A DNA stretch of 64,000 nucleotides from Campylobacteraceae bacterium (GTDB lineage: Bacteria > Campylobacterota > Campylobacteria > Campylobacterales > Campylobacteraceae). The DNA lies in NCBI GenBank assembly GCA_047974135.1, contig JBKECC010000082.1, positions 1,391 through 65,390 of the forward strand. Direction: 5' to 3'. A model generated the notes under the pieces. It ran no database searches and was not told where the DNA came from. It saw nothing but the letters and a program-made list of their open reading frames with translations. The translations under genes were made by a program, and so were the position numbers. Below, piece after piece: positions 6,327-62,552 of the stretch. How positions within the stretch are numbered: the first letter of the stretch is position 1; the number at the start of each line of letters is the position of its first letter.

Positions 6327-7925
6327 GTGCTCACATATAACTATCAAAATTTTTATGAGATGATTTGCCACAATGCAAAAAATGACCCAAATAAAAAGGT
6401 GCTGTTTTTTGAAAAAAAATCCACAACAAATCAAGAGTTAAAAACAAAGGTCGATATCTTAGCCACTTTCTTACATGTAAAAGGCATAAAGGAGGGCCAC
6501 AGAGTTGGACTCATCATAGCAAACTGTGAAGAGTTTATAGTATCTTTTTTGGCTGCCACTAGACTTGGCGCCATTTGTGTGCCTATAAATACATTTTTAA
6601 AACACGAAGAGTTTAGCCATATTTTAAATGACTGTGGTGCTAAGATGATTATAAGTTCCCCAGCATATCAAAAAGAGACTTCCTCTCTTTTGGTTACAAC
6701 AGGTATAGAAGCTATTTTGTGGACAGAAGAGTTTGAACAATATGATGATAAAAATTTTAGTTATATAGACATTCAAAAAAAAGCTATAAAAAGTGATTTA
6801 AGCGTAAGTCCAAAAATCGATGATTTGGTTTGTATTATCTACACTTCAGGAACAACAGGAAAGCCAAAAGGAGCGATGCTAAGCTATAAAAACATGCTCT
6901 CAAACATGGTGGCAGCAAAACTTGTAATGAACATAACAAATAAAGATAGATTTATCGTTTATCTACCAATGTTTCACTCTTTTACTCTTACTGTTATGAT
7001 ACTTTTGCCTATATATTTTGAATCTTCCATAGTTATAGTTCGCTCCGTTTTTCCATTTTCAAACATCTTAAAACAAGTTCTTTTAAAAAGAGTTACCATA
7101 TTTTTAGGAGTTCCAACGGTTTACAATGCTCTATTAAAAGCAAAAATCCCTTGGTATTTTATGTGGTTTAATTGCATTAGAATCTTTGTAAGTGGAAGTG
7201 CACCACTAAGTGAAAAATCGATAAGTGATTTTACTGCAAAGTTTAAAAAAGCAAAACTTATAGAAGGTTATGGACTTAGCGAATGCTCTCCTGGCGTTGC
7301 CATAAACCGCATGGATTTACAAAAACCACTCTCTGTTGGACCAGCACTTCCTGGATATACCATAAAGATAGTAGATGAAGAGATGGTGGAGCTTAAAACT
7401 GGCGAAGTTGGAGAGATTATAGTGCATGGTGATTGCACTATGCAAGGCTACTATAAAAATGAGCTTGAAACAGAAGAGACTTTAGTAAATGGATGGATAA
7501 AAACGGGAGATTTGGGCAAGCTTGACGAAGATGGCTATCTTTTTATCGTTGATAGAAAAAAAGATTTGATTATCTCAAAGGGTATAAATATCTATCCAAG
7601 AGAAATCGAAGAGGTTTTGTATCAATTGGACATAGTAGCAAATGCTGCTGTAATTGGTATCAAAAACGATATAAGTGATGAAGATGTTATAGCATTTATA
7701 GAGTATAAAGATGATGCGCCAAAAAGATTAAATGAGATGCAGATAAAAAAATACTTAAAAGAGCATCTCGCAAATTTTAAAATACCAAAAGAGATATATA
7801 TAGTTGATGATATGCCAAAAAATGCAACTGGCAAAGTCTTAAAAAGAGTTTTGAAAGAGCAAGTTTTGAAAGAGATAGAAGAGGCAAAAATAAAAGAGGG
7901 TTTTAAAGTAGAAGAAGGGGTTTAA
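6327..7925 (+). CDS. AMP-dependent synthetase / long-chain fatty-acid-CoA ligase
   Basis: AMP-binding motif IYTSGTTGKPKGAML, 532 aa. Confidence 0.85.
   Translation: MLTYNYQNFYEMICHNAKNDPNKKVLFFEKKSTTNQELKTKVDILATFLHVKGIKEGHRVGLIIANCEEFIVSFLAATRLGAICVPINTFLKHEEFSHILNDCGAKMIISSPAYQKETSSLLVTTGIEAILWTEEFEQYDDKNFSYIDIQKKAIKSDLSVSPKIDDLVCIIYTSGTTGKPKGAMLSYKNMLSNMVAAKLVMNITNKDRFIVYLPMFHSFTLTVMILLPIYFESSIVIVRSVFPFSNILKQVLLKRVTIFLGVPTVYNALLKAKIPWYFMWFNCIRIFVSGSAPLSEKSISDFTAKFKKAKLIEGYGLSECSPGVAINRMDLQKPLSVGPALPGYTIKIVDEEMVELKTGEVGEIIVHGDCTMQGYYKNELETEETLVNGWIKTGDLGKLDEDGYLFIVDRKKDLIISKGINIYPREIEEVLYQLDIVANAAVIGIKNDISDEDVIAFIEYKDDAPKRLNEMQIKKYLKEHLANFKIPKEIYIVDDMPKNATGKVLKRVLKEQVLKEIEEAKIKEGFKVEEGV
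6470..6481. repeat. palindrome copy cTTACATGTAAA (11/12)
   Basis: Inside the acyl-CoA ligase CDS, read as LHVK. Confidence 0.9.
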
Positions 7926-7927
7926 AA

Positions 7928-8779
7928 ATGGTTTTTATCACCGACTCAACACTTGATTTTTGGCTTAAAGAGGATGTGAGTTATATTGATTTAACGACCT
8001 TTTCTCTAGGGATTGGAGATGAAGATGCAACATTTGAGATTTACGCAAGAGATGAATGTATACTTTGTGGAAGCGAAGAGATTGAGAGATTGGCAAAGAA
8101 ATTAAACATTAATCTTTTACATGTAAAAAGTTCAGGCAAAAAAGTAAAAGATAAAGAGTTAGTTTTTAAAGCTTTTGGAAAAGCAAAAGATATACATATA
8201 CTTTGGAGAGTATCAACAAATATACTCTCTTTTGCAAGTAGCATAGCTACAAGAACTAATAGACTTGTAACTCTAGCAAAAGAGGTAAATAAAAATATAG
8301 CAGTTGGAAGTACAAGAAAATCAACTCCAGCAACTAGAGCACTTTCAACAAAAGCTGTTCTTTGTGGTGGGGGAATAATTCACAGATTAGGACTCTCTGA
8401 AACATTTTTGATGTTTGATGAACATAAAGTTTTTTTTAACTCAAATGATGACATCATTAAAAAATTACAAGAATTAAGACACACGCTTGCCGAAAAAACT
8501 CTTAGTATTGAGGTAAAAAGTGTAGAAGAAGGAACAGTTTTTGCACCTTTTGTTGATATACTTCAAGTTGATAAACTCTCACCTGAAGATGTTAACAAAA
8601 TTGTTTTACATGTAAAGACAAAAAACCTTAAAACAAAGGTTGCAGTTGCTGGTGGAGTGAATGAGAAAAATATAAAAGAGTATGCAAAAACAGGTGCAGA
8701 CTTTTTAGTAACTTCAAGTATGTTCCAAAATAGTAGTGAGATAGATTTTGGAGTTCGTATAACAAAAGGAAATAGTTGA
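7928..8779 (+). CDS. type II phosphoribosyltransferase, NadC/ModD-like
   Basis: 283 aa with similarity pattern to quinolinate PRTase/ModD family. Assignment tentative. Confidence 0.55.
   Translation: MVFITDSTLDFWLKEDVSYIDLTTFSLGIGDEDATFEIYARDECILCGSEEIERLAKKLNINLLHVKSSGKKVKDKELVFKAFGKAKDIHILWRVSTNILSFASSIATRTNRLVTLAKEVNKNIAVGSTRKSTPATRALSTKAVLCGGGIIHRLGLSETFLMFDEHKVFFNSNDDIIKKLQELRHTLAEKTLSIEVKSVEEGTVFAPFVDILQVDKLSPEDVNKIVLHVKTKNLKTKVAVAGGVNEKNIKEYAKTGADFLVTSSMFQNSSEIDFGVRITKGNS
8116..8127. repeat. palindrome TTTACATGTAAA (12/12)
   Basis: Inside the NadC-like CDS, read as LHVK. Confidence 0.9.
8605..8616. repeat. palindrome TTTACATGTAAA (12/12)
   Basis: Inside the NadC-like CDS, read as LHVK. 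Confidence 0.9.
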
Positions 8780-10536: not shown

Positions 10537-10548
10537 TTTACATGTAAA
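10537..10548. repeat. palindrome TTTACATGTAAA (12/12)
   Basis: Intergenic, 28 nt after the AAA ATPase stop, upstream of nuoA. Confidence 0.9.
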
Positions 10549-11559: not shown

Positions 11560-12359
11560 TGCGTAAATATAGTGATAAAACAAACGTTCAAAAAAAAGTC
11601 TTTTATAGAGATAGATTTAATGTAAATACGCACATTCCAAGGTTACATGTAAATAGTGATGAAGTATTTAACGAGAACTTTGAAAAATTAAGTGCAAAGT
11701 TTGATATAAAAGATGCATATATTGAAGCTGGACAAATGGTTGTTTGGATAGATGCAAAAGATATTTTTGAAGTTATAAAGTTTTTTAGAGATGAACTTTC
11801 ATACAACAATCTTTCAGAAATGAGTGCTGTTGATTTTTTAGCTACTCGTGGAGAGTTTGAGCTGTTTTATCAACTACTATCCATGAAACATAAAAAAAGA
11901 GCAAGAGTAAAATGTACATTAAAAGAGAAAGAGTCTATAAAAAGTGTATCTGAAATTTTCAAAAGTGCAAACTGGGCTGAAAGAGAAGCTTACGATATGT
12001 TTGGCATTATTATAAGTGAACATCCTTATATGAAGAGAGTTTTACTTCCAGATGATTGGAGTGGACATCCACTTTTAAAAACTTATCCACTTCATGGTGA
12101 CGAAGCAGCACAATGGTATGAAATAGATCAGATTTTTGGAGAAGAATATAGAGATTTAATAGGTCCAGAGATAAGAGATGCTGCTCGCATTGATAAAGAA
12201 GATACAAGAGCTTATGCAAGAAAAGGTCATGAAGTAAAATTTGATGAGCCTTATAGCGAAGAGCCAACCAAGATAGACAATTACCAAGAAGATGGCGGAG
12301 TTTTCTTAATCACTAAATTTAAGAAAAACAAAACTACATATTTGAAAAAGAGGCGTTAA
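11559..12359 (+). CDS. nuoC: NADH-quinone oxidoreductase subunit C
   Basis: 30-kDa subunit family, 266 aa. Confidence 0.85.
11642..11653. repeat. palindrome copy gTTACATGTAAA (11/12)
   Basis: Inside nuoC, read as LHVN. Confidence 0.9.
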
Positions 12360-13602: not shown

Positions 13603-13845
13603 ATGAAAAGATATGATTTAAGACACTTAAAAGAGAACTTTGAAGAGAGAATGGGTGAACTTATAAATGAAGCAGAAAGTAAAGAAGCGTTAATCTTTAT
13701 CTTTGAAACCATCTTAGAAGATAGATTGCAGAAGATTTTAAAAGATATAGACGCCAAGGGTCATGAAGTCTTAAACTCGTTGAGATTTAACGAAATTGAC
13801 TGGACGATAGCTATAAGAGTAAAAGGAGAGTCAAGTGAGTTATAA
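13603..13845 (+). CDS. small protein occupying the nuoE position (Cj1575c-like)
   Basis: 80 aa, unrelated to NuoE. Matches the known epsilonproteobacterial arrangement. Confidence 0.6.
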   Translation: MKRYDLRHLKENFEERMGELINEAESKEALIFIFETILEDRLQKILKDIDAKGHEVLNSLRFNEIDWTIAIRVKGESSEL

Positions 13846-14674
13846 AACATTGATAAGCACTTTTGAAAAATGTGGAGTAAGCCTAAGTAAGATTGATAGC
13901 AACAGTTCTATCATATTTTTAGGAACACTTTTCTCTTTTGATAATGAAGAGTTGGTTGAAAGAGTTTTAAAATCAAAAGAGGATTTTATCTACTGCTCGC
14001 CAATGGAAGATAGCGCTTTGCAAGAAAAAGCAAAATCATACATAAAGTATGAAGTAACAAGTGAAGCTGGGGTTTTAGCCTTGCTTTCAAAAGAGCTTTT
14101 AAAAGATGAAGAAAAAACAGAAGAAACAAAAGAGTTTTTAGATGAATTAGATGATGGATACTTAAGTGCAGAGAGCAATGTAGGCGAAGAGGAGATTTGT
14201 GAAATTGTAGAGTTTATAAAATCTTCAAAAAAATGCACACTTGTTTTAGGTGCTGATTTATACAATCACCCTGATTTAAAAAGCATCGCTGAGGTTATCT
14301 CAATACTTGTAACTGTAAGAAATTTAAGAGTTAGTATAATCGATGATATAGAACATGAAGCAAAAAAGATTGATATAAAGCCAGAAGATATAGAAGAGTT
14401 AAAAAGTTTTGATGGTTTGGTTGTCTATTTTGTTACATGTAAAAATACTAATAAAGCAGAAAAACTCTTTGGACCAAAACAGTTTTTACAAGCCGCTAAG
14501 ATAAAAGATAAAGAGGTTGTAGACATATATGTTGAAGGCAAAAAAGTTTCTACAAAAGAGTTTAATTTCCAAAGTGAATTAAAAGGAACTATCGCTATTT
14601 CAAACACAGCAAAAGATATTGAAGGTTATAGATACAAAAAAGTAAAAATTCTTCCAAAGGATACTAAACAATGA
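13835..14674 (+). CDS. protein occupying the nuoF position (Cj1574c-like)
   Basis: 279 aa with no NADH/FMN-binding motifs. Same context as C. jejuni Cj1574c. Confidence 0.6.
   Translation: MSYKTLISTFEKCGVSLSKIDSNSSIIFLGTLFSFDNEELVERVLKSKEDFIYCSPMEDSALQEKAKSYIKYEVTSEAGVLALLSKELLKDEEKTEETKEFLDELDDGYLSAESNVGEEEICEIVEFIKSSKKCTLVLGADLYNHPDLKSIAEVISILVTVRNLRVSIIDDIEHEAKKIDIKPEDIEELKSFDGLVVYFVTCKNTNKAEKLFGPKQFLQAAKIKDKEVVDIYVEGKKVSTKEFNFQSELKGTIAISNTAKDIEGYRYKKVKILPKDTKQ
14432..14443. repeat. palindrome copy gTTACATGTAAA (11/12)
   Basis: Inside the Cj1574c-like CDS, read as VTCK. Confidence 0.9.
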
Positions 14675-17157
14675 GTAAGATTAGTATCACGATAGATGGC
14701 ATCAAATGTGAAGCGGTTGAGGGAGAGTATATACTAAATGTCGCAAGAAGAAACAATATCTTCATCCCTGCACTTTGTTATCTCTCAGGCTGTTCACCAA
14801 CGCTTGCATGTAGGCTTTGTATGGCAGATGTTGATGGCAAAAGAGCTTATACATGTAACGCCAAAGCAAAAGATGGACAAGTTATAGTCTCAAGCACGCC
14901 AGAAATTGAAGAAGAACGCCGCTCCATCATGGAAGTTTACTGTATTAATCACCCTTTGGAGTGCGGAGTTTGCGACCAAAGTGGCGAATGTGAACTTCAA
15001 AACTATGTTCACGCGATTGGAGTAAATAACCAACACTATACCATTGCAAATACTCACAAACCAGTTGAAAATTGGGGTTTAACAAGATACGACGCTTCAC
15101 TTTGTATTATGTGTGAAAGATGCGTTACTGTTTGCAAAGATCGAGTTGGTTGCAACGCTTTAAAAACAGTTCCAAGAGGTGAGGGGCTAGCAGTTCCTAA
15201 AGAAAACAAAGACAGTATGCCAAAAGATGCATTTGCTGTTTGGAATAGGCTACAAAAATCAATCATAGCAAAAGTAGAAGACGTGGACTGTGGAGATTGT
15301 GGGGCATGTGCTGAAGTTTGTCCTGTTGGAGCACTTGTTGTAACAGGTTTTCACTACAAATCTAACTCGTGGGAACTACAAAAAATCCCAGCAGCAAATC
15401 CTCATAGTAGCGATTGCTCTTTGATATATTATGAAGTAAAACAGATAAGCCAACAAAACAGTGAAGAAAAAATATACAGAGTTGAAGGCGAACAACCATT
15501 TAACGTTATAAATGGAGCTGCAAGATTTGGCTACGACTTTGAAAATAGAGTTAAAGAAAAAGATGAGAATAGCTTTAATGAAGCCATATCTTTTATAAAA
15601 ACAAAAGCTGACACTATAAAATTTAATAGCTATATAACTAACGAAGAAGCTCTAATTTTACAAAAAATCAAAGAAAAATACAACTTAAAACTTGTAAATG
15701 ATGACGCCTTTAGATATCAAAGATTTTTAAATGCATTTTCATCTTCAAGTACAAAAAGCTTATATCAAGGCTCTCTAAAAGAGATTGAAGAGAGCAATTT
15801 TATAGTTAGTGTTGGAACGGCTTTAAGATACGACTTTCCAAATGGCGGATACGCATTTAACACCGCTTTAAAGATGAACAAGGCAAGCGGGATTTACGCT
15901 CATCCAATAGCCGATAAAATCGTTGAAGATTACTCAAAAAATCTTTTAAGCTTGCAGTATAAAGTAGGTAGTGAAGAAGCTATGTTTTATCTGTTGCTTG
16001 AACTTTGTGCTAATAAATCAATGCTTGATGAGGCAACAAAAGAGTATCTAAACTCTTTACATGTAAAATCAAAAAGAATGGCTGATGAAAACGTTGTAGA
16101 AGAAATCATAGAAAAAGTTATAAAAAAGATACAAGATGAGACAGGTGACGAGAGAGAAATAGAAGAAGAGGTACCTAAAAAAGTTACAAAAGTTGTGCAA
16201 AAAGAGGTTGAATACGAGACAACAAAACTTTGGGAGTTGGCTGGACTTGAAGATTTTAAAGAAAAAGTAGAAACTTTAAAGAGTGGAAAAGATAGATTTA
16301 GCTTGATTATCGGTGAAGATTTACTAACTCATAAAAATTGGGAAAATTTAGCAATACTTGCTGGAACCATAGAAAGAACAACACCTTTTAGTGTTACAAT
16401 CATCCCTCCACAAACAAACACTTTAGGGGTTGCCTTACTTTGCGAACTTGATGAGTTTGGTGGTGAAAACACTCTTGGTTACAATGAAAAAGGAAGCTTT
16501 ACTCTAAGTGCGCTTGGTGATGGAGAGCTTGATATGCCTTCACTAAATCAACAAGAGGGAACTTTTACAAGTATTGACAAAAGAGTGGTTCCTACAAATG
16601 CGGCTTTGGGTTATAAAGGCTATATTTTAAATGACTTAGCAAACGCTTTAGGGATAAGAGCAAAATATACTATTGATTACACAAAAGAGTTGCCAGATAA
16701 AAGTGGATATATAAAAAAAGAGTTTGACGAATTGCCAAATTACTTTGACAATGGTGGCACAGAACATCGCGGTTATCTTTTACATTTAAAAGAAAATGAA
16801 GTTTTAAAAACTCCAAAAGATATAAGCACTTTTGAGTTGAGTAAAAACACTGTTTACAAAAAAAATCCAGTACTTCAATTTAACGCTTTTACAAATAAGG
16901 CTCTTGAGATTACCTCGTGTGCTGCACTTTATGCTTCGGAAGAGTTTTTACATGTAAACGATTTAAGAGATGGACAAAGTATAAAACTCGTAAGCGATGA
17001 TGGAAAACTACTTTCAATCAAAGTAAAGCTCGACAAAAACGTAAAAGGACTTATCCCTTCTCTTCCAACGTTCGATACAAAAGTTGATGTTAGTGCATTT
17101 TTCAAAGATGGATATAGATTTGGAACATACGAGATAAAAGGAGCAGATAATGAGTGA
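14671..17157 (+). CDS. nuoG: NADH-quinone oxidoreductase subunit G
   Basis: N-terminal 2Fe-2S/4Fe-4S cysteine motifs, 828 aa. Confidence 0.85.
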   Translation: MSKISITIDGIKCEAVEGEYILNVARRNNIFIPALCYLSGCSPTLACRLCMADVDGKRAYTCNAKAKDGQVIVSSTPEIEEERRSIMEVYCINHPLECGVCDQSGECELQNYVHAIGVNNQHYTIANTHKPVENWGLTRYDASLCIMCERCVTVCKDRVGCNALKTVPRGEGLAVPKENKDSMPKDAFAVWNRLQKSIIAKVEDVDCGDCGACAEVCPVGALVVTGFHYKSNSWELQKIPAANPHSSDCSLIYYEVKQISQQNSEEKIYRVEGEQPFNVINGAARFGYDFENRVKEKDENSFNEAISFIKTKADTIKFNSYITNEEALILQKIKEKYNLKLVNDDAFRYQRFLNAFSSSSTKSLYQGSLKEIEESNFIVSVGTALRYDFPNGGYAFNTALKMNKASGIYAHPIADKIVEDYSKNLLSLQYKVGSEEAMFYLLLELCANKSMLDEATKEYLNSLHVKSKRMADENVVEEIIEKVIKKIQDETGDEREIEEEVPKKVTKVVQKEVEYETTKLWELAGLEDFKEKVETLKSGKDRFSLIIGEDLLTHKNWENLAILAGTIERTTPFSVTIIPPQTNTLGVALLCELDEFGGENTLGYNEKGSFTLSALGDGELDMPSLNQQEGTFTSIDKRVVPTNAALGYKGYILNDLANALGIRAKYTIDYTKELPDKSGYIKKEFDELPNYFDNGGTEHRGYLLHLKENEVLKTPKDISTFELSKNTVYKKNPVLQFNAFTNKALEITSCAALYASEEFLHVNDLRDGQSIKLVSDDGKLLSIKVKLDKNVKGLIPSLPTFDTKVDVSAFFKDGYRFGTYEIKGADNE
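16056..16067. repeat. palindrome TTTACATGTAAA (12/12)
   Basis: Inside nuoG, read as LHVK. Confidence 0.9.
16947..16958. repeat. palindrome TTTACATGTAAA (12/12)
   Basis: Inside nuoG, read as LHVN. Confidence 0.9.
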
Positions 17158-19622: not shown

Positions 19623-21476
19623 ATGGAAAAACTTTTATATATAGCACTTTTTTCACCACTTGTTGGAGCACTTTTTGCCTCTTTGTTTGCGATGAGCAAA
19701 AAAAATATTATAACAGGAGTTGTAAATTCAACTCTTATAGCTATTTCAACTATAAGCTCATTAATACTTCTTTGCTCTCTTAGAGACGGGGAAAGTTTAC
19801 ATGTAAATATGATGGAGTGGATAAGTGCAGGAAATTTAGCCATTCCTTTTGGATTTGTGGTTGATAAAGTCTCAGTCATTATGATGGTAACAGTTGGCGT
19901 TGTTTCAACCTTGGTTCATGTTTACTCTATAGGCTATATGTCTCACGATAGAAGTTTCAATAGATTTTTTGCATATTTAAGCGCCTTTGTTTTTTCTATG
20001 ATGGTACTTGTCATGAGTGACAACTTTTTAGGACTTTTTATAGGCTGGGAAGGTGTTGGACTTTGTTCTTGGATGTTGATTGGTTTTTGGTATGAAAGGC
20101 AAAGTGCTTCTTGGGCTGCAAACGAAGCTTTTATCATGAATAGAATAGCAGATCTTGGTATGCTTCTTGGTATATTTTTGATTTATTGGCAGATTGGAAG
20201 CTTACAGTATGATGTTGTTTTTAGTGCAATTTCCTCGCTTGATACATCAGTTGTTATAATCATCGGTATTTTACTTTTTATTGGTGCGATGGGAAAATCA
20301 GCACAGTTTCCACTTCACACTTGGCTTGCAGATGCGATGGAAGGACCAACTCCTGTTTCAGCACTTATCCACGCCGCAACGATGGTAACGGCCGGTGTTT
20401 ATCTTGTAATTCGTGCAAATCCTATATATACGCTAATTCCCGATGTTGGGTTTTTTATAGCATGTCTTGGAGCTTTTGTTGCGATTTTTGCAGCGTTGAT
20501 GGCACTTGCAAACAATGACTTGAAGCGAATTATCGCTTACTCAACTCTTTCACAACTTGGATATATGTTCGTTGCAGCTGGACTTGGCGCATACTGGATA
20601 GCGCTTTTTCACTTAATGACACATGCATTTTTTAAATCATTACTGTTTTTAGGTGCAGGAAATGTTATGCACGCAATGCATGATGAGTTAAATATAAAAA
20701 AGATGGGTGGATTGTATAAATCTCTAAAGATAACTGCGATTTTAATGATTATAGCCTCCGTTGCACTTGCTGGTATTTGGCCTTTTGCTGGATTTTTCTC
20801 AAAAGATAAGATACTTGAAGTTGCATTTAATGAGCAAGCGTATATCTTATACGGAGCTCTTTTTGTTGGAGCCGGACTTACAGCATTTTATAGCTTTAGG
20901 CTAATTGCTTTAGTCTTTTTTGGTAAAAAAGAGTATGAAAAACTTGGCGTTCATCCTCATGAAGCAAGCTCAGTGATGCTTTTAGCGATGCTTCCTCTTG
21001 GAGTATTAGCCATGATAGCTGGATTTTTTGAAAAGCCTTTTCACTCATTTGTAACTTCACTTTTGCCTGATTATATTTTTACTTTTAATCATGACTTGAT
21101 TTATATAATGATAGCGGCAACTTTGAGTATAGCACTATTTGGTATCCTTTTTGCTCTTTACATGTATATAAAAAAAGGTGGATTTTCGTCAAATATAGAA
21201 AAAACTGGTATTTATAAAATTTTATCAAATCAGTATTTTATACCACAGTTTTATCAAAACTACATAGTAAAACCATTTATCGCAGTAGCAAACTTTACAT
21301 GGAAAAAACTTGATGAGAGTTTGGTTGATGCCTCAGTTGATGCCATAGCAAAACTACTTTATAGAAGTGGAGAAGGTGCTAGAAAAATGCAAAGCGGAAA
21401 TCTCTCAACCATGCTTAGATGGATGGTTGTTGGTATCACGATTTTACTTATAACAGCAATTTTTTACAAAGCTTAA
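19623..21476 (+). CDS. nuoL: NADH-quinone oxidoreductase subunit L
   Basis: Antiporter-like subunit, 617 aa. Confidence 0.9.
   Translation: MEKLLYIALFSPLVGALFASLFAMSKKNIITGVVNSTLIAISTISSLILLCSLRDGESLHVNMMEWISAGNLAIPFGFVVDKVSVIMMVTVGVVSTLVHVYSIGYMSHDRSFNRFFAYLSAFVFSMMVLVMSDNFLGLFIGWEGVGLCSWMLIGFWYERQSASWAANEAFIMNRIADLGMLLGIFLIYWQIGSLQYDVVFSAISSLDTSVVIIIGILLFIGAMGKSAQFPLHTWLADAMEGPTPVSALIHAATMVTAGVYLVIRANPIYTLIPDVGFFIACLGAFVAIFAALMALANNDLKRIIAYSTLSQLGYMFVAAGLGAYWIALFHLMTHAFFKSLLFLGAGNVMHAMHDELNIKKMGGLYKSLKITAILMIIASVALAGIWPFAGFFSKDKILEVAFNEQAYILYGALFVGAGLTAFYSFRLIALVFFGKKEYEKLGVHPHEASSVMLLAMLPLGVLAMIAGFFEKPFHSFVTSLLPDYIFTFNHDLIYIMIAATLSIALFGILFALYMYIKKGGFSSNIEKTGIYKILSNQYFIPQFYQNYIVKPFIAVANFTWKKLDESLVDASVDAIAKLLYRSGEGARKMQSGNLSTMLRWMVVGITILLITAIFYKA
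19796..19807. repeat. palindrome TTTACATGTAAA (12/12)
   Basis: Inside nuoL, read as LHVN. Confidence 0.9.
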
Positions 21477-24476: not shown

Positions 24477-24477
24477 G
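24466..24477. repeat. palindrome copy TTTACATGTAAg (11/12)
   Basis: Its TAC-ATG-TAA frame supplies the last two codons and the stop of nuoN. Confidence 0.9.
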
Positions 24478-24762: not shown

Positions 24763-24768
24763 ATTTTA

Positions 24769-24780: not shown

Positions 24781-24806
24781 GAGTTTTAAGCCTTTACAGG
24801 TAAACT

Positions 24807-26892: not shown

Positions 26893-26901
26893 ACAAACCT
26901 A

Positions 26902-44228: not shown

Positions 44229-44305
44229 CACAGCCCTTCTTATGACTATACTTAAATAAAACTATATTCAGAAGGTTAAATCATTTTAAATCTCAAGGAA
44301 AAATT

Positions 44306-44506
44306 ATGAAAAAAGATATACATCCAGAATACGTAGAGTGTACTGTAACTTGTGCTTGTGGCAATAGTTTTACAACTATGTCAAACAAAAAAGCAATGAG
44401 AATCGACATCTGCAGTTCTTGCCATCCATTTTTTACAGGAAGCGAGAAGATAGTTGACTCTGCTGGTCGTGTTGAAAAATTTAAGAAAAAATACAACATG
44501 AAATAA
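44306..44506 (+). CDS. rpmE: 50S ribosomal protein L31
   Basis: 66 aa with CxxC...CxxCH Zn-ribbon. Confidence 0.9.
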
Positions 44507-44518: not shown

Positions 44519-45337
44519 TTGCTTTACTTTGTTCCTACCCCGATAGGAAATCTTGAAGATATTTCGGTAAGGGCTTTAAGGCTCCTTACCACAACTCCTA
44601 TTATTTACTGCGAAGATACAAGAGTAACAAAAAAACTTATAACACTTTTAAAAGAAAAACACAACTTAACTTTTACATGTAACCAAACTTTTATATCTCT
44701 TCATTCACACAATGAAGAAGAGACAGTAAAAAAGTTAAATGTGGAAGATTTTTTACAAAACGATGTTTTGTATGTAAGTGATGCTGGAATGCCAGGCATT
44801 AGTGATCCTGGTATTTTACTGGTAGAATTTGCACAAAAAAATGGCATAAAATATGAAGTTCTCCCAGGTGCAAACGCTGCTCTTGTTGGACTTGTCTCGA
44901 GCGGTTTTAGTGGAAACAGATTTTATTTTTATGGATTTTTACCGCACAAAAACGAAGCAAGAAAGAGTGAATTAACGCAGATTTTATCTTTTACATGTAA
45001 TGTTATTTTATATGAATCAACTCACAGAATTTTAAAACTCACCGAAGAATTTTCTCTTCTTGCCCCAAATAGAGAAATTTTTATCATTAAAGAAGCTACA
45101 AAAAAGTACGAAACTCATTTTTTAGGAACTGCAAAAGAGGTTCATGAAAAAATGAAAAATTCAAATACAAATGGCGAATTTGTAGTAATTTTAAAAGGTT
45201 TAGAGCAGCCAAAGGGCGAAGCACTTACAAAAGAAGATATTTTATCTTTAAATATACCAAACAAACAAAAAGCAAAACTTTTATCAAAAATGTCTGGAAT
45301 CTCCACAAAAGAGTGGTACGAAAAGCTAAATAACTAA
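44519..45337 (+). CDS. rsmI: 16S rRNA (cytidine1402-2'-O)-methyltransferase
   Basis: LYFVPTPIGNLEDIS N-terminus. TTG start. Confidence 0.8.
   Translation: MLYFVPTPIGNLEDISVRALRLLTTTPIIYCEDTRVTKKLITLLKEKHNLTFTCNQTFISLHSHNEEETVKKLNVEDFLQNDVLYVSDAGMPGISDPGILLVEFAQKNGIKYEVLPGANAALVGLVSSGFSGNRFYFYGFLPHKNEARKSELTQILSFTCNVILYESTHRILKLTEEFSLLAPNREIFIIKEATKKYETHFLGTAKEVHEKMKNSNTNGEFVVILKGLEQPKGEALTKEDILSLNIPNKQKAKLLSKMSGISTKEWYEKLNN
44672..44683. repeat. palindrome copy TTTACATGTAAc (11/12)
   Basis: Inside rsmI, read as FTCN. Confidence 0.9.
44990..45001. repeat. palindrome copy TTTACATGTAAt (11/12)
   Basis: Inside rsmI, read as FTCN. Confidence 0.9.
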
Positions 45338-51025: not shown

Positions 51026-51037
51026 TTTACATGTAAG
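51026..51037. repeat. palindrome copy TTTACATGTAAg (11/12)
   Basis: trxA-trxB intergenic, after the hairpin. First of a pair. Confidence 0.9.
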
Positions 51038-51051: not shown

Positions 51052-51063
51052 TTTACATGTAAA
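51052..51063. repeat. palindrome TTTACATGTAAA (12/12)
   Basis: trxA-trxB intergenic, 14 bp after the previous copy. Confidence 0.9.
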
Positions 51064-51086: not shown

Positions 51087-52040
51087 ATGAGCGACAAAAT
51101 TTTAGATTTAGCAATCATAGGTGGCGGACCAGCTGGACTAAGTGCCGGGCTTTACGCAACAAGAGGCGGACTTAAAAACGTTGTTATGTATGAAAAAGGT
51201 GTTCTTGGCGGACAAATAACAAAAAGTAGCGAAATCGAAAATTACCCAGGTGCGATAGATGTTGTCTCTGGTTTAGAGTTAATGGAAAAATGGCCAGAGC
51301 AATGTATGAGATTTGGTTTAAAACACGAAATGATTACAGTTTTAAGAGTAAGTAAAAATAGTGATGAAACATTCACGCTGCTTTTAGAAGACAAAAGCGA
51401 AGTAAAAGCAAAAAGTGTCATCGTTTGTACCGGTGCAAATCCTAAAAAATCAGGCGTAAAAGGTGAAGATGAATTTTATGGACGTGGAGTTAGCTTTTGC
51501 GCAACTTGTGATGGATTTTTTTATAGAAATAAAGAAGTAGCAGTTTTAGGTGGTGGAGATGCTGCACTTGAAGAAGCACTATTTTTATCAAACCTTTGTT
51601 CGAAAGTTTATGTTATCCATAGACGCGATAGCTTTAGAGCTTGTCCTGCAACAGTTCATAGAGCACAGAGAGTTGATAAAATAGAATTTATTTTAGACTC
51701 AACAGTAAAAGAGATTTATGGCGACAAAATGGGCGTTAATGGTGTTATTTTAACTAACAAAGAAGGAGTGGATAGAGACTTAAAAGTTCCTGGAATCTTT
51801 GTATTTGTTGGAATGCATGTAAACAATGAAGTTTTAAAACAATCTGACGGTAGCTTTATCTGCGATATGAGTGAAGGTGGAGAAGTTGTAGTTGATATAA
51901 ATATGAAAACTTCAACCAAAGGACTTTTTGCAGCTGGAGATATAAGGATTGACGCTGCTAAACAAGTTGTTTGTGCCGCAGGAGATGGCGCGCTTGCTGC
52001 GATTAGAGCTATAACTTATTTAGAAACACTTCATCATTAA
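51087..52040 (+). CDS. trxB: thioredoxin-disulfide reductase
   Basis: GGGPAG FAD motif and CATC redox motif. Confidence 0.9.
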
Positions 52041-54174: not shown

Positions 54175-55141
54175 ACAAAATCTGCAAGAAATCCTAACAA
54201 TTGGTAGGTATTTTAGAAGAAAATATGACACAAATGTTTTTAAAGTGCCTATCTCAATTTCAGGATTTACTTGTCCAAATATAGATGGAACAGTTGCCAA
54301 GGGTGGCTGTATTTACTGCGAAAATGAGTCATTTAGCCCAAATCTTACAAAGGCTATGAATAGATTTAAGTTAAATCCACAAGTAAAAGAAAATCCTTTC
54401 ATTGATGCGCAGCTAAATCAACTTGAAGAGCAATACACAAAAACAAAGATAAAACTCGCCAAAAAACATAATGCAAAAAAGTTTATAGTCTATTTTCAAT
54501 CTTTTACCAACACTTACGCACCATTTTCTACACTTAAAGCCTTATATGACAAAGCTTTTGCACTTCCTGATATGATAGGTATAAGCATAGGAACAAGAAG
54601 CGATAGTATAAATGAAGAGATTTTGTCTTACTTAAAAGAAAAAAGCGAGAAGGAAAATAAAGAGGTTTGGATAGAGTACGGCGTACAATCTATCTATGAT
54701 GAAACCCTGAAACTTATAAACCGTGGTCATGGCTTTGAAAATGCAAAAGAGTGGATTTTAAAAACCAAAGAGTATGGATTAAACGTTTGTGCTCATGTGA
54801 TATTTGGACTGCCAAATGAAACACAAGAGATGATGTTGAACTCTTTTAAAGCAGTTTGTGATATAAGAGTAAATTCCATAAAAATTCACCCTTTATACAT
54901 CACAAAACATACAAGACTTGCAAGCCTTTATAAAAAAGGTGAATTTGTTCCAATGAGTGAAGAGTTTTACCTTGATACTTTAGTAAAAGCTGTAAAAATG
55001 ATGCCTAAAGATATCGTTTTGCAACGCATAACAGCAGGAGTTCCTGATGATACGCTTTTGTCACCTTCTTGGTGTTACGAGCCTCATACACAGAAAAACA
55101 ATGCTAAAAACGCACTAAAAAAAGCTGGATTTTTGTATTAA
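54149..55141 (+). CDS. radical SAM protein, TIGR01212/YhcC-like
   Basis: GFTCPNIDG...CIYC cysteine motif. True start may lie downstream of 54149. Confidence 0.7.
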   Translation: MTVTTLSNKQNLQEILTIGRYFRRKYDTNVFKVPISISGFTCPNIDGTVAKGGCIYCENESFSPNLTKAMNRFKLNPQVKENPFIDAQLNQLEEQYTKTKIKLAKKHNAKKFIVYFQSFTNTYAPFSTLKALYDKAFALPDMIGISIGTRSDSINEEILSYLKEKSEKENKEVWIEYGVQSIYDETLKLINRGHGFENAKEWILKTKEYGLNVCAHVIFGLPNETQEMMLNSFKAVCDIRVNSIKIHPLYITKHTRLASLYKKGEFVPMSEEFYLDTLVKAVKMMPKDIVLQRITAGVPDDTLLSPSWCYEPHTQKNNAKNALKKAGFLY

Positions 55142-55164
55142 ATCCTTTTACATATAAAAGGATT
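55141..55164 (+). terminator. AATCCTTTT-acatat-AAAAGGATT hairpin at radical-SAM gene end
   Basis: 9-bp perfect arms. The centre is a one-mismatch copy of the 12-bp palindrome (TTTACATaTAAA). Confidence 0.35.
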
Positions 55165-55183
55165 TGAGAATTTTGATAATATG

Positions 55184-55195
55184 TTTACATGTAAA
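55184..55195. repeat. palindrome TTTACATGTAAA (12/12)
   Basis: Intergenic after the radical-SAM gene. Confidence 0.9.
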
Positions 55196-55202
55196 GATTG
55201 GG

Positions 55203-55214
55203 TATTTGCAAATA
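55203..55214. repeat. 12-bp palindrome TATTTGCAAATA, copy 1
   Basis: Exact palindrome downstream of the small minus-strand gene. Confidence 0.6.
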
Positions 55215-55227
55215 TTTTTTCGTTTTT

Positions 55228-56314: not shown

Positions 56315-56326
56315 TTTACATGTAAA
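56315..56326. repeat. palindrome TTTACATGTAAA (12/12)
   Basis: In the 24-nt gap between the hisIE stop and the TauE start. Coordinates set from the ORF-track boundaries; my raw count of the text gave +1. Confidence 0.85.
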
Positions 56327-56330
56327 AAGG

Positions 56331-57002
56331 TTATTTCTTTGTTCTGTTGTTTTTCTCTTCTATGCCACTAAGTCCAAAGCGTCTGGCTAGCTCTTGCTCA
56401 AGTCTATCTGGATGTATATTTTTGTCGCCAAGAGCAACTAACATGTGAAAAAGAAGGTCAGCACCTTCGTAGATTATCTCATTTTCTTTATTGTCTTTTA
56501 CTGCAAAGGTAAACTCTCCAGCTTCTTCAACAACTTTCTTTAAGTATGAATTTTCACCTTTACTTAAAAGTTTTGCAACGTAAGAAGTTTCAGGATTTGC
56601 GTTTTTTCTCTCCAATATAGTGTGATAAAGTTTATCTAAAACCCCATAATGCAAGATGGTTTGTGTGTCAATGTTTTCATTTTTTTCTTTACATGTAAAA
56701 GCGTCTGTAAAAAAGCAACTTTTGTGTCCCGTGTGACAAGCAACGCCTATTTGCTCTACTTTCAAAAGAATAGTGTCAGCGTCACAATCAAGAATCATCT
56801 CTTTGATATTTTGGATATTTCCACTACTCTCACCTTTTTTCCAAATTCTCTGTTTAGAGCGTGAGAAGTAGTGGGCTATGCCAGTTTGTTGTGAAAGATT
56901 AAAAGCTTCTTCATTCATGTAGGCAAGCATCAAAACTTCATTGGTTACTATATCTTGTGCGATTGCTGGCACAAGTGGTGTTTTACTCCAATCAATTTTC
57001 AA
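56331..57002 (-). CDS. hisI: bifunctional phosphoribosyl-AMP cyclohydrolase/phosphoribosyl-ATP pyrophosphatase
   Basis: HisI N-terminal plus HisE C-terminal motifs. TTG start. Confidence 0.85.
   Translation of the reverse strand: MKIDWSKTPLVPAIAQDIVTNEVLMLAYMNEEAFNLSQQTGIAHYFSRSKQRIWKKGESSGNIQNIKEMILDCDADTILLKVEQIGVACHTGHKSCFFTDAFTCKEKNENIDTQTILHYGVLDKLYHTILERKNANPETSYVAKLLSKGENSYLKKVVEEAGEFTFAVKDNKENEIIYEGADLLFHMLVALGDKNIHPDRLEQELARRFGLSGIEEKNNRTKK
56688..56699. repeat. palindrome TTTACATGTAAA (12/12)
   Basis: Inside hisIE (minus strand), read as FTCK. Confidence 0.9.
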
Positions 57003-59222: not shown

Positions 59223-59234
59223 CTTACATGTAAA
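59223..59234. repeat. palindrome copy cTTACATGTAAA (11/12)
   Basis: 12 nt upstream of the tautomerase ATG, after a TATAAT box. Confidence 0.9.
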
Positions 59235-59464: not shown

Positions 59465-60345
59465 AAATCCCGCTTTCTTGCTTTAATATTTCAAACTATT
59501 TAACTACTTTTAAAATAGAAAATTTTTATCCTATTAACTACTCTGTTTATGATGAGCAAGCTATAAATATATTTTTTAGGAATAAAGATTGGCGAAGTGA
59601 AGCGATAGATTTTAAAGTTTTAAGCATAAGTGTTGATTTTTTTAAAGGGGATATTTTTGGAGTCGAGATTTATGAGATTGGAAAGCAGACAAGAAAGCTT
59701 TGGCATTTTAAAGAGTTTAAAGATGGCTATTTATTTTTAGGTGCAAATGTAACACAAGAAAATAATTATCATGAAGTAAATGCTATAATTTACGACAAAA
59801 GCTTTCAATTACAAAATGAATTTTCTCTTGGAAATGGTGTTGAAGATATCTTGATAAACAGAAAAAATGAGATAGTCGTTAGTTACTGTGATGAGGGAGT
59901 TTATGGCGATTTTGGAGTTAGTTCACACGGAGTTGTAAAGTTTTCAACAAGTGGTGAATTGCTTTGGGTAAATACAAAGCATAGAATTGATGATTGTTAC
60001 GCTATAAACTTTGATAGTGATGAAAATCTGTGGTTTTACTATTATGATGATTTTTATTTAATTAAAACAAATTTTGAAAAAGAGAGTATTTATGACCCCA
60101 ATATTACTGGTTCAAAAACATTTATGTTAAACAAAAAAATAGATAAAATCATCATGGATAAAGGGTATGATAAGCATGACAAATTTGTTGTAAAGTCTAT
60201 AAAAGAGGGCAAATTTGATAAAGGTGAAGAGGTTTTGTTTGCATGTAAAGATATTGAAATAAAGCCACAAACATATCTTTTTTATAAATCTTCGATTTTA
60301 TTTGTTGATAAAAATGAACTTTTTTTTGGAAAATGGCAAGATTAA
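59458..60345 (+). CDS. hypothetical protein
   Basis: 295-aa ORF, no recognisable motifs. Confidence 0.4.
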   Translation: MLKIPLSCFNISNYLTTFKIENFYPINYSVYDEQAINIFFRNKDWRSEAIDFKVLSISVDFFKGDIFGVEIYEIGKQTRKLWHFKEFKDGYLFLGANVTQENNYHEVNAIIYDKSFQLQNEFSLGNGVEDILINRKNEIVVSYCDEGVYGDFGVSSHGVVKFSTSGELLWVNTKHRIDDCYAINFDSDENLWFYYYDDFYLIKTNFEKESIYDPNITGSKTFMLNKKIDKIIMDKGYDKHDKFVVKSIKEGKFDKGEEVLFACKDIEIKPQTYLFYKSSILFVDKNELFFGKWQD

Positions 60346-60852: not shown

Positions 60853-61380
60853 GTGCCAAGAGCTTTGAGAAAAGATGAACTAATAAAATCTTCCCATGAG
60901 GCTTTTGATAAGCTTTGGATTTTAGTAGAGTCTATGAGCAGTGAAGAAAAAACAGCTTCGTTTTTGTTTGAAGATAGAGATAAAAACTTGCGTGATGTTT
61001 TTATACATCTCTACGAGTGGCATCAGTTATTGTTAAAATGGGTTAAGGCAAATAAAAATGGCGATAAAAAACCATTTTTGCCTGAACCTTATAGCTGGAA
61101 AACATACCCAAAAATGAATATAGAATTTTGGGAAAAACACCAAAATACGCCTCATAAAGATTCTGTAAAAATGCTCAAAAATAGCCACGAAGATGTTATG
61201 AGCTTGGCTAAAAGTTTTTCAAATGATGAACTTTTTACTAAAAAATATTTTTCTTGGACTGGAAGTACGAGCTTGGGAAGTTATTTTGTTTCCGCTACTT
61301 CGAGTCACTACGAATGGGCTATAAAAAAGATAAAAAAACAGATAAAAGAGTTAAAAAAATTTAAAGGAGAAAAACAATGA
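60853..61380 (+). CDS. ClbS/DfsB (DUF1706)-like four-helix-bundle protein
   Basis: GTG start. Overall similarity pattern to the DUF1706 family. Assignment tentative. Confidence 0.45.
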   Translation: MPRALRKDELIKSSHEAFDKLWILVESMSSEEKTASFLFEDRDKNLRDVFIHLYEWHQLLLKWVKANKNGDKKPFLPEPYSWKTYPKMNIEFWEKHQNTPHKDSVKMLKNSHEDVMSLAKSFSNDELFTKKYFSWTGSTSLGSYFVSATSSHYEWAIKKIKKQIKELKKFKGEKQ

Positions 61381-61844
61381 TAGAAGTTGGAAAAGAAGCA
61401 CCACTTTTTTGTTTACCAAATCAAGATGATGTAGAGATTTGCCTTAGAGATTTAAAAGGAAAGTGGGTGATTTTGTACTTTTATCCAAAAGACAATACAC
61501 CAGGATGTACAACAGAAGCTTGTGAATTTAGCGCGAGTTTGCCAAACTTTGAAGACTTAAATGCTGTTATTGTGGGCATTAGTCCTGATAGCACAAAATC
61601 TCATCAAAAATTTATAGAAAAAAAAGATTTAAAATTCACACTTTTGAGTGATGAAAAAAATGAAGTATCAACTTTATATGATGTTTGGAAACTCAAAAAA
61701 CTTTATGGACGCGAATATATGGGCATTGAACGCTCCACTTTTCTTGTAGACCCAAAAGGAAAAGTAGCTTATATTTGGCGAAAAGTTAAAGTTAATGGAC
61801 ATGTTAGTGAAGTTGGAAAAATATTAAGTGGATTGCAAAAGTAG
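61377..61844 (+). CDS. bcp: second Bcp-type peroxiredoxin paralog
   Basis: YPKDNTPGCTTEAC. About half the residues are identical to the upstream bcp by eye. Confidence 0.85.
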   Translation: MIEVGKEAPLFCLPNQDDVEICLRDLKGKWVILYFYPKDNTPGCTTEACEFSASLPNFEDLNAVIVGISPDSTKSHQKFIEKKDLKFTLLSDEKNEVSTLYDVWKLKKLYGREYMGIERSTFLVDPKGKVAYIWRKVKVNGHVSEVGKILSGLQK

Positions 61845-62552
61845 ATGAGCAAAGAGAGCATTTTACAAAACATTGATGAAGTTTTGAAAAGGATAGAGCT
61901 TGTTTGCAAAAATTGTGGCAGAAACAAAGAGGAAGTAAAACTCCTTCTTGCCACAAAAACAGTAAGTAGCGATGATATAAAAATAGCGCTAAGTTCGGGA
62001 CAAACTCTAATTGCCGAAAACAAAGTCCAAGAGTTAAAAAGCAAATATGAAGACTTAAAAGATGTTTTACATGTAAACCATTTCATCGGACATTTGCAGA
62101 CAAATAAAATCAAAGATATTTTAAAGTGCGATGTAAAGTGCATCGAATCAGTTGACAGACTTGACCTTGCTTTGAAACTTCATGAAAAGCTAAAAGCTGA
62201 TGGCAAAACCATGGAGATTTTTATAGAAGTTAACACTTCAGGTGAAGCAAGTAAGTTTGGAGTAGAGTTAAAAGATGCTGTTAGTTTAGCCAAAGAGATT
62301 TCAAAGCTTGACTCTTTACATGTAAAAGGTTTGATGACTATAGGACTTTTTAGTGATGATGAGGTAAAAGTAAGAGAGTGTTTTAAAAAACTAAAAAATC
62401 TTCTAACAACTATAAAAGCTTTAAATTTGCCAAATTTTGATTTAAAAGAACTCTCTATGGGAATGAGTGGAGATTTAGAAATCGCCATAGAAGAGGGCTC
62501 AACTATCGTTCGTGTTGGAAGTGCTATATTTGGAGCAAGAAATTATCATTAA
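61845..62552 (+). CDS. yggS: YggS-family PLP homeostasis protein
   Basis: Alanine-racemase N-terminal-like fold with GHLQTNK motif. Confidence 0.8.
   Translation: MSKESILQNIDEVLKRIELVCKNCGRNKEEVKLLLATKTVSSDDIKIALSSGQTLIAENKVQELKSKYEDLKDVLHVNHFIGHLQTNKIKDILKCDVKCIESVDRLDLALKLHEKLKADGKTMEIFIEVNTSGEASKFGVELKDAVSLAKEISKLDSLHVKGLMTIGLFSDDEVKVRECFKKLKNLLTTIKALNLPNFDLKELSMGMSGDLEIAIEEGSTIVRVGSAIFGARNYH
62066..62077. repeat. palindrome TTTACATGTAAA (12/12)
   Basis: Inside yggS, read as LHVN. Confidence 0.9.
62315..62326. repeat. palindrome TTTACATGTAAA (12/12)
   Basis: Inside yggS, read as LHVK. Confidence 0.9.

Follow-up and report, generated by a model that had tools for sequence, protein, structure and literature searches.

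The stretch of DNA studied here, hereafter the window, comprises 64,000 nucleotides of contig JBKECC010000082.1 (positions 1,391 to 65,390) in the Campylobacteraceae metagenome-assembled genome (MAG) GCA_047974135.1. Its GC content is ~33%, and 74 open reading frames (ORFs), among them nuo and urease genes, leave it ~95% coding. Scattered through its genes and gaps is a 12-bp sequence, TTTACATGTAAA, counted in 27 exact copies against 0.04 expected in dinucleotide-preserving shuffles, or about one per 2.4 kb (~0.4 per kb). With up to one mismatch, the number of copies rises to 50 (0.97 expected in the same shuffles), so that exact copies outnumber the 23 that differ at a single position. The sequence is a perfect palindrome with CATG inside ACATGT at its centre and has for this reason no orientation; its copies are listed with "." for strand, and those called near-copies below have one mismatch unless stated otherwise. 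The motif stands alone as a hyper-abundant palindrome of the Sulfurospirillaceae and is found both in this MAG and in cultured Sulfurospirillum species. A collection of plasmids gave no match to the window.

Positions flanking the 12-mer show no consensus among the window copies, and the borders of the motif are sharp. Mismatches in near-copies cluster at the outermost positions 1, 11, and 12, which defines the core as TTACATGTAA or TACATGTA. As many as 50 of the 54 ACATGT hexamers in the window lie inside TACATGTA. The four orphans outside it, at 33258, 53422, 56441, and 61799, compare with ~16 expected (Poisson p = 4e-4), as would be anticipated if partial matches are drawn towards the full motif; depletion of the bare core can mean either absorption into the full motif or avoidance. 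A larger repeat, such as a miniature inverted-repeat transposable element (MITE), was ruled out, the flanks being unconserved and the symmetry reaching only one further position on each side (C..G) in Sulfurospirillum. An assembly artefact is unlikely, given that the motif is found in an isolate genome and that reading frames are preserved. A promoter-like reading of TTTACA as a -35 element was also discarded, with 57 promoter-like matches versus 59.5 in shuffles.

Copies inside genes can be read in three frames on either strand, frame 1 giving FTCK, frame 2 LHV[KN], and frame 3 Y-M-stop. In the ORF set of this analysis, 17 of the 27 exact copies (63%) are intragenic, 13 in frame 2 (LHV[KN]) and four in frame 1 (FTCK). 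Orthologous DNA for comparison was taken from two related loci, L006 and L007 (77-78% NuoL identity), from Sulfurospirillum deleyianum, S. arcachonense, two further MAGs, and five distant genomes; the best relatives stand at ~77% amino-acid identity, with synonymous sites saturated. A NuoG scan of species genomes provided five distant loci of ~50% identity with zero motif copies, which served as motif-free outgroups. Protein-guided codon alignments of 15 motif sites (in nuoC, nuoG, nuoL, queE, rsmE, rsmI, and others) contain no motif-sized indel. Further sites were aligned to solved structures and sets of homologs (UreG, three sites in UreD, two in UreF, two in the YggS-like protein, the ModD/NadC-like site 8116, the acyl-CoA ligase, and UreE). 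In total, length is equal to that of orthologs at 26 of 28 testable intragenic sites and a four-residue insertion was found at none, the remaining two (8605 and 56688) being located in loops or linkers that vary in length among distant homologs. Intragenic copies arise by point substitution at codons that are already motif-like, x-H-V-K in frame 2, F-x-C-K in frame 1, and Y-M-Y in frame 3.

Relatives often have intermediate states at the same codons, as at three sites of the nuo genes (19796, 16056, and 21157). The exact NuoL copy at 19796-19807 (frame 2, LHVN) occupies a pre-adapted H-V-K site, where the conserved H-V-K already gives relatives CATGTAAA, and two mismatches at most separate four of the nine compared loci from the motif. 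In NuoG, the exact copy at 16056-16067 (frame 2, LHVK) corresponds to TCTACATGTAAA in L007 and TTTTCATGTAAT in L006, the near-copy TTTACATTTAAA at 16779-16790 (frame 2, LHLK) is exact in L007, and the exact copy at 16947-16958 (frame 2, LHVN) faces L-E-x in relatives at equal length. The NuoL near-copy at 21157-21168, read as TTTACATGTAtA and entered in the feature list as TTTACATGTATA, is in frame 3 (LYMYI), with Y-M-Y kept in closer relatives. Equal length was also observed for the NuoL near-copy TTTACATGGAAA at 21294-21305 (frame 1, FTWK), for GTTACATGTAAA at 11642-11653 in NuoC (frame 2, LHVN; this lineage only), and for the near-copy at 14432-14443 in an epsilon-type nuo subunit (frame 1, VTCK). 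The nuo operon is of the epsilon type at 13603-14674, where two unrelated ORFs stand in place of NuoE and NuoF, as in Campylobacter and Helicobacter; near-copy 14432 is in the second of these ORFs.

Among the urease accessory genes, UreD bears three exact copies. That at 31541-31552 (frame 2) reads SLHVK against RLHTK of the UreH chain 3sf5_B and is equal in length to 18 homologs. The other two form a tandem pair with a 2-nt gap, at 31698-31709 (frame 1, FTCK) and 31712-31723 (frame 2, LLHVN), and the resulting FTCKLLHVN takes the columns occupied by FGELLLRAG and the like in 18 homologs, which are 248-253 aa long. Both exact copies in UreF, 35064-35075 and 35136-35147 (frame 2, LHVK), keep equal length, the former versus UreF chain 8hc1_D, and the near-copy CTTACATGTAAA at 34418-34429 in UreE (frame 2, LHVN) shows no insertion versus 4l3k. 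The UreG near-copy at 35730-35741 (TTTACATGTAcA; TTTACATGTACA in the feature list) aligns without gaps to 4hi0 and 5xkt. An earlier reading of the window from its letters and ORFs (the sequence-only reading) had cited UreG as an equal-length replacement in frame 1 or 2; the length is right, while the frame is 3 (FYMYI). The string ELADLTIYVID that it ascribed to H. pylori is that of chain 5xkt, which we take to be Klebsiella UreG, and chain 4hi0, presumably the H. pylori protein, reads ELADFTIFVID. In the same region, antisense within the gene for the urease large subunit (32713-32997, minus strand), there is a match to Rfam RF02514, the H. pylori 5' ureB antisense sRNA, with 102 bits versus a gathering score of 40, which may simply reflect coding conservation.

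Elsewhere in the window, near-copies are located at 3786-3797 in an HP0838-like lipoprotein ORF (TTTACATGTATA, frame 1, FTCI) and at 6470-6481 in the acyl-CoA ligase gene (CTTACATGTAAA, frame 2, LHVK; equal length versus 4gxq). Two exact copies in the ModD/NadC-like gene (both frame 2, LHVK) differ in their surroundings: 8116-8127 shows no insertion versus 3tqv or 3c2e, and 8605-8616 lies in a length-variable loop, +3 versus 3tqv and shorter than in 3c2e. The N-terminal part of UrtB carries an exact copy at 27214-27225 (frame 2, LHVN), a DUF2802-like gene the near-copy TTTACATGTAAG at 39189-39200 (frame 2, LHVS; equal length versus L006), and a gene without assigned function an exact copy at 39722-39733 (frame 2, SLHVK), which is exact also in S. 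arcachonense and replaced by KRHAK, at equal length, in L006. Genes without assigned function also hold the near-copies TTTACATGTATA at 43490-43501 (frame 1, FTCI; equal length) and TTTGCATGTAAA at 60238-60249 (frame 1, FACK). In QueE, the near-copy TTTACATGTAAG at 41070-41081 (frame 1, FTCK) sits inside the C-N-x-x-C motif, as the sequence-only reading had noticed; its TGT encodes the conserved Cys, and the two middle residues alone differ from L006 (CNLQCK). The exact RsmE copy at 44031-44042 (frame 1, FTCK) adjoins an indel of one residue, not four, and both RsmI near-copies, TTTACATGTAAC at 44672-44683 and TTTACATGTAAT at 44990-45001 (frame 1, FTCN), keep equal length. The TrxB site given earlier as an example (51812-51823, MHVN) does align without gaps to 3r9u and 2q0k, but it is only a three-mismatch relative of the motif, AATGCATGTAAA. 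Further exact copies are found in HisIE on the minus strand (56688-56699, frame 1, FTCK), at the edge of a length-variable inter-domain linker, and in the YggS-type pyridoxal phosphate protein, at 62066-62077 (frame 2, LHVN; homologs as long or longer here) and 62315-62326 (frame 2, SLHVK; equal length, GIELQ / NLNII). A copy with two mismatches is present in the EamA gene on the minus strand (62890-62901, frame 3, FYMY). The last exact copy, 63497-63508 (frame 1, FTCK), falls in the N-terminal extension of an ORF for QueH, ahead of the conserved domain, and may precede the true start.

These alignments bear directly on a mobile element, of the MITE kind or related to repetitive extragenic palindromes (REP) and their associated transposases (RAYT), which would have inserted itself or left a footprint at each site. 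Intergenic pairs of the motif do resemble REP-like hairpins at gene 3' ends, and TTAC, contained in the motif on both strands, is the target tetranucleotide of IS608. However, there is no conserved flank past 12-14 bp, the spacers of pairs vary in sequence, reading frames stay intact, and the majority of exact copies are intragenic and of equal length, unlike in REP or MITE families. For intragenic copies, insertion of a mobile element is already largely refuted, and for the motif as a whole we consider it very improbable. The sequence-only reading had argued that copies replace residues rather than add four and do not come from a mobile element, and had proposed ortholog alignments as a check; the 26 equal-length sites, the flanks unconserved beyond the 12-mer, and the intermediate states in relatives agree with it on both points.

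The distribution over frames is less informative. Frame 3 includes TAA, which is impossible inside an ORF, so exact copies are necessarily confined to the other two frames. With up to one mismatch, there are 18 intragenic copies in frame 2, 12 in frame 1, and two in frame 3, plus one spanning a stop codon, the near-copy TTTACATGTAAG at 24466-24477 (frame 3), whose TAA is the stop codon of nuoN (..I-Y-M-stop). In the frame-3 near-copies 21157 and 35730, as in the third such case with two mismatches (62890), the stop is disrupted; copies in this frame last only in that form or where their TAA terminates the gene. The excess of frame 2 among exact copies (13:4) is marginal (p = 0.07) against the ratio of 1.29:1 between frames 2 and 1 for near-matches with 3-4 mismatches in motif-poor relatives, and frame preference was rejected as a signal. 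The sequence-only reading, which had also proposed to test frames against random expectation, regarded restriction to the two stop-free frames as a signature of molecular drive. Its coordinates are accurate (6470 is the one-mismatch copy in the acyl-CoA ligase gene, 62315-62326 the exact copy in the YggS-like gene), and its 24 intragenic copies with the patterns LHV[KNS] or [FV]TC[KN] become 25 in our count. The restriction holds for exact copies, by logic of the TAA, and fails for near-copies, in which (F/L)YMY exists. The claim about frames is trivial; that about substitution is correct but was previously described for uptake signal sequences (USS) and for the highly iterated palindrome HIP1.

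Residues encoded by the motif are identical to those of L006 and L007 in 44% of cases, versus 62% elsewhere in the same genes (p = 2e-4). The same columns also vary between the two relatives (44% versus 61% identity, p = 0.057), and the number of copies per residue is lower in better conserved genes (Spearman rho -0.53, p = 0.006). The motif alters amino acids, chiefly in weakly constrained places: variable columns and genes of lower conservation. The earlier statement that it imposes changes on conserved proteins is thus supported by the drop in identity, and weakened by the variability of the affected columns and the preference for less conserved genes.

The other ten exact copies are intergenic, though non-coding DNA makes up only 4-7% of the window (p 1e-7 to 1e-5). 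The motif is several-fold denser there, above all just 3' of stop codons and between convergent genes, with five intergenic copies no more than 7 nt away from a stop codon. This enrichment, as well as the occurrence throughout the clade presented below, was missed by the sequence-only reading. All four genuine convergent gaps hold an exact copy: 24763-24806 between a GNAT gene (+) and a response regulator gene (-), with the copy at 24769-24780; the 33-nt gap 36855-36887 between a ParE-like gene (+) and miaA (-), with the copy at 36875-36886; 55142-55227, with the copy at 55184-55195; and 62553-62569 between the YggS (+) and EamA (-) genes, where the copy at 62556-62567 takes 12 of 17 nt. A fifth convergent gap turned out to be an artefact of a shadow ORF (44293-44499, -) opposite rpmE (44306-44506, +). 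The latter encodes ribosomal protein L31 (MKKDIHPEY...), and naive calling of the longest ORFs yields a false convergent gap at this place. The copy at 3440-3451 is 2 nt past the stop of a cation-efflux gene (2482-3438), facing tRNA-Glu on the minus strand (3592-3666); that at 10537-10548 is 28 nt past the stop of an AAA/WHD gene, upstream of nuoA; and that at 35976-35987 is 2 nt past the ureG stop. The remaining three are positioned in the divergent gap between miaA (-) and ubiA (+) (37848-37859), between trxA and trxB (51052-51063), and in the 24-nt gap between the stop of hisIE (-) and the start of a TauE-like gene (-) (56315-56326). Unpaired intergenic near-copies are TTTACATGTAAG at 2367-2378 and, in divergent gaps, TTTACATGTAGA at 25474-25485 and CTTACATGTAAA at 59223-59234.

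Since the motif is palindromic, any two copies amount to an inverted repeat and can pair as hairpins. Four intergenic exact copies have each a one-mismatch partner whose start is 24-39 nt away: 24769 with TTTACAGGTAAA at 24793-24804 (12-nt gap), 35976 with TTTACTTGTAAA at 36015-36026 (z = -5.1), 51052 with TTTACATGTAAG at 51026-51037 (22-bp stem, z = -5.8), and 55184 with TTTACATATAAA at 55147-55158. Hairpin folding was pronounced in three of these pairs (z -3.2 to -5.8). In the fourth (55147/55184, z = -1.4), near-copy 55147 folds alone, at the tip of AATCCTTTTACATATAAAAGGATT (55141-55164), a near-perfect palindrome of 24 nt that has this copy at its centre. Likewise, S. deleyianum has CGGGTTTACATGTAAACCCG between convergent genes (L128, ~20225-20244), and single copies can thus form the apex of longer hairpins. 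A terminator scan of the 24-40 kb segment revealed no classical GC-rich, U-tailed intrinsic terminator at any motif copy. Stems made of the motif are rich in A and T, their U residues being on the 5' side and their A residues on the 3' side, and classical intrinsic termination was rejected as an explanation.

Beyond the window, a metagenome scan for motif pairs returned at least 120 entries. Motif-rich contigs, some of them near 1 Mb and with 38-41% GC, belong to Sulfurospirillum, their proteins being identical to or clustering with those of S. diekertiae, S. multivorans, and S. deleyianum; a group of contigs with 31% GC is closest to S. arcachonense. The consensus in Sulfurospirillum contigs is the same 12-mer, TTTACATGTAAA, which in S. 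deleyianum and contigs of the Sulfurospirillum type extends to cTTTACATGTAAAg, and the 14-mer form of the motif is CTTTACATGTAAAG. Density is ~0.4-0.6 per kb in Sulfurospirillum loci selected for pairs; the unselected nuo region of S. deleyianum CP001816 has four exact and five one-off copies in 21.9 kb (0.18 exact copies per kb), and all 11 of its ACATGT hexamers are inside TACATGTA. Sister lineages carry the shorter or degenerate variants TYTACATGTARA and TTACATGTAA, and no motif copies were found in loci L006 and L003-L005. Across nine compared loci, sites are partly common to lineages and partly lineage-specific, which indicates turnover. Another palindrome is hyper-abundant in a contig of an uncultured Helicobacteraceae MAG (CAUTXO010000015.1, L001 1-13238), in which CATG occurs 0 times versus ~50 expected. 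This contig contains 41 AGATCT versus 3.5 expected, in the loose consensus yaAGATCTtrg, and AAGATCTT 11 times versus 0.24 expected. Many lineages of Campylobacterota may thus have an iterated palindrome of their own.

Exact pairs in Sulfurospirillum contigs have a preferred spacing. A gap of 10 nt dominates among closely spaced pairs, with at least 20 cases versus 1-6 for neighbouring gaps, in the form TTTACATGTAAAG-N8-CTTTACATGTAAA with a spacer of variable sequence; examples of this composite element are L042 10623-10656, L024 4154-4187, and L037 2854-2887. The weak spacer consensus (G-C...A-rich...C) is in part a product of the chosen orientation. Such pairs are located no further than 27 nt 3' of a stop codon in 16 of 17 cases and are between convergent genes in 11 of 17, and the two that were folded (L042, L024) gave z of about -7. 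The window has no exact pair with this gap. Separately, Ga0181537 contigs (L025, L030, and L047, for example) comprise repeats with a period of 41 bp, each unit containing TTTACATGTAAA and then ATACCATCAC..., which swell the gap-29 class in the histogram of pairs.

Centre to centre, the spacing of gap-10 pairs is 22 bp, or two helical turns, which suggests a symmetric protein on duplex DNA and not only an RNA hairpin. The motif could represent operators or other sites bound by an abundant protein that works where transcription units end, for example as a roadblock terminator or an insulator of convergent genes, with intragenic copies as tolerated by-products. Dimeric helix-turn-helix proteins typically have sites with two-fold symmetry over 12-14 bp, a copy is present in each convergent gap of the window, and Sulfurospirillum pairs are phased beside stop codons. 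Unrelated phage contigs, too, have the 12-mer in local, operator-like clusters. Against this, the 17 intragenic exact copies, themselves in several-hundred-fold excess, are left unexplained, no classical intrinsic terminators were seen at motif sites, and ~0.4 copies per kb is far above known regulons or sites of nucleoid occlusion and partition, which number tens per genome. Compared with operators of the SlmA, Noc, and parS type, symmetry and length fit, while density and the 63% of copies in genes do not. We consider binding sites confined in function to gene ends unlikely, and the same density and share of copies in genes speak against an ordinary regulon. The phage clusters were observed in low-GC IMG/VR contigs (L137 356-536, with five copies in 180 bp; L134 6969-10262; L142 7320-10613) and resemble operator or iteron arrays, not the dispersed motif. 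All 12 matches in viral contigs were local clusters of this kind in unrelated phages, with no dispersed pattern, which says nothing on Sulfurospirillum phages.

Substitution origin, depletion of orphan ACATGT, and the surplus of exact over one-off copies (27 versus 23) could also be produced by biased repair or gene conversion without DNA uptake, in which sequence-specific nicking or repair of the very-short-patch type corrects near-matches and neutrally replenishes the motif. However, the recognition sites of known short-patch repair systems span 4-6 bp instead of 12-14 bp. Enrichment at 3' ends and phased pairs would remain unexplained, and the window contains no candidate gene. This explanation appears to us quite improbable, more so than a protein bound at gene ends.

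The reading that we favour, tentatively, is that the motif is a self-DNA tag for natural transformation which accumulates by molecular drive. A sequence-specific process acting on DNA along the whole chromosome would turn near-matches into matches. The duplex palindrome would serve as a recognition tag in uptake, recombination, or both, read by a protein of two-fold symmetry and possibly methylated at the CATG core. Fragments that match better would be preferentially taken up and recombined, so that the motif accumulates, and purifying selection on proteins would hold the drive in check. We give preference to this reading because substitution origin, placement constrained by proteins, absorption of partial matches, hairpin pairs at 3' ends, lineage variants, and turnover together make up the signature of USS and of DNA uptake sequences (DUS). 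For USS and DUS the same model has been put forward, and methylated palindromic RAATTY of Campylobacter jejuni offers a parallel within Campylobacterota.

Several observations weigh against a self-DNA tag. No competence, methyltransferase, or restriction gene was found in the window, and no report of competence in Sulfurospirillum was found in the searchable literature. Classical USS and DUS are not palindromes, and the 22-bp spacing could fit cooperative binding of a protein at gene ends, with a function possibly unrelated to transformation. Motif sites are shared with L007 in 3 of 8 cases versus a background of 15% (p = 0.11); conservation not significantly above background demonstrates neither drive nor selection. 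In addition, the island at ~24800-36900 between nuoN and miaA, with genes for a urea ABC transporter, urease, and UreDEFG and also for a response regulator and a ParE-like toxin pair, matches the core in motif richness (seven exact copies in ~10 kb). The nuoN/miaA junction of L006, L007, S. deleyianum, and S. arcachonense has no urease or urea-transporter genes, and the richness of the island is compatible with drive only if it is old or came from a motif-bearing donor.

The closest competitor is an element of the HIP1 type, a palindrome kept by selection for a chromosomal function, for instance as the site of an orphan methyltransferase or of a nucleoid-organising protein, whose copies arise by substitution and are retained as useful. 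The perfect palindrome surrounds CATG, a 4-bp core of the kind that methyltransferases recognise, and the Helicobacteraceae MAG has a second iterated palindrome, A-GATC-T. Sharp 22-bp spacing suggests a protein on duplex DNA, and several sites are common to lineages. On the other hand, the window has no methyltransferase gene, specificity over 12-14 bp exceeds any ordinary methyltransferase site, and the preference for 3' ends and convergent gaps with hairpin pairs is typical of DUS and USS. Conservation of sites versus L007 is not significant, as noted above, and recent work on HIP1 points to transformation, so that this explanation may merge with that of a self tag. We consider it possible, although somewhat doubtful.

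The 12-bp iterated palindrome common to Sulfurospirillaceae, with phased pairs at convergent gene ends, was not found reported in the searchable literature: no description of the 12-mer, the 10-mer, or a Sulfurospirillum uptake sequence was encountered, subscription-only papers being outside the coverage. Genome-wide self tags are known in detail from two families only, Pasteurellaceae and Neisseriaceae, and the motif might extend uptake-sequence biology to a third lineage. We suggest, as a speculative extension, that a long palindromic self tag of Sulfurospirillaceae, possibly methylated, would be the third independent and first long palindromic family of uptake sequences, and that Campylobacterota lineages may each own an iterated palindrome on a 4-bp methylation core (A-CATG-T; A-GATC-T in the Helicobacteraceae MAG). 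If true, this would tie the puzzle of cyanobacterial HIP1 to the biology of uptake sequences. The motif combines USS/DUS and HIP1 signatures in a different phylum that includes cultured, genetically studied Sulfurospirillum; direct tests are thus possible in cultured strains, and motif-poor sister lineages allow comparison of gene presence. Many housekeeping proteins contain LHVK, FTCK, or YMY peptides shaped by the motif, which also contributes stop codons and gene-end hairpins; this is of relevance for annotation and for the design of DNA constructs in these organohalide-respiring bacteria.

Among known systems, USS spread by substitution under frame and codon constraints, with preference for poorly conserved residues and genes (PMC2817400), and lineage-specific variants of uptake sequences are described as dialects (PMC3630211). 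The motif resembles both in over-representation of hundreds-fold at ~0.4-0.8 per kb, in substitution spread, frame and codon constraints and poorly conserved positions and genes, and in extragenic enrichment, inverted hairpin pairs just 3' of genes, and lineage variants; like DUS, it is 12 bp long. It differs from them in being perfectly palindromic, in the sharp 10-nt gap of its pairs, and in the phylum, Campylobacterota. Intergenic copies and pairs are also similar to REP and bacterial interspersed mosaic elements (BIME) as hairpin-forming palindromes at gene 3' ends, often between convergent genes. REPs, however, are restricted to the DNA between genes, measure 20-40 bp, and are believed to be moved by RAYT transposases, whereas the motif is substitution-born and largely in genes.

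HIP1 (GCGATCGC) is likewise a perfect palindrome, hundreds-fold in excess in and between genes, with substitution spread, lineage variants, and a short core of the methylation type; its spacing along the chromosome is periodic (10-90 kb), on a scale that a 64-kb window is too short to show. Its propagation by substitution is credited to Robinson 1997 as cited in PMC4390886. It contains GATC and CGATCG, and a matching methyltransferase is present in every HIP-rich cyanobacterium (PMC4390886). HIP1 sites are reported to be kept by selection, and biased repair has been considered for them (PMC5861425). The function of HIP1 was unclear for three decades and has lately been linked to transformation, transformation of a cyanobacterium being more efficient with methylated HIP1 (bioRxiv 10.1101/2024.09.10.611283). 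The comparison with USS and HIP1 made in the sequence-only reading was apt, as substitution spread with biases of frame and conservation is reported for both (PMC2817400; PMC4390886). The motif is set apart from HIP1 by 12 AT-rich instead of 8 GC-rich base pairs, by the core CATG/ACATGT instead of GATC/CGATCG, by its strong bias to 3' ends and convergent gaps and its phased pairs, and by occurrence in Campylobacterota instead of cyanobacteria. In the same phylum, C. jejuni takes up only DNA methylated at the palindromic RAATTY (PMC10046745), a CtsM signal by which its own DNA is recognised in natural transformation (PMC10046745; bioRxiv 10.1101/2024.09.10.611283). RAATTY, a degenerate 6-mer, recurs roughly every 60 bp, mostly owing to base composition, and derives its specificity from methylation, while the motif described here is a 12-mer several hundred-fold above expectation.

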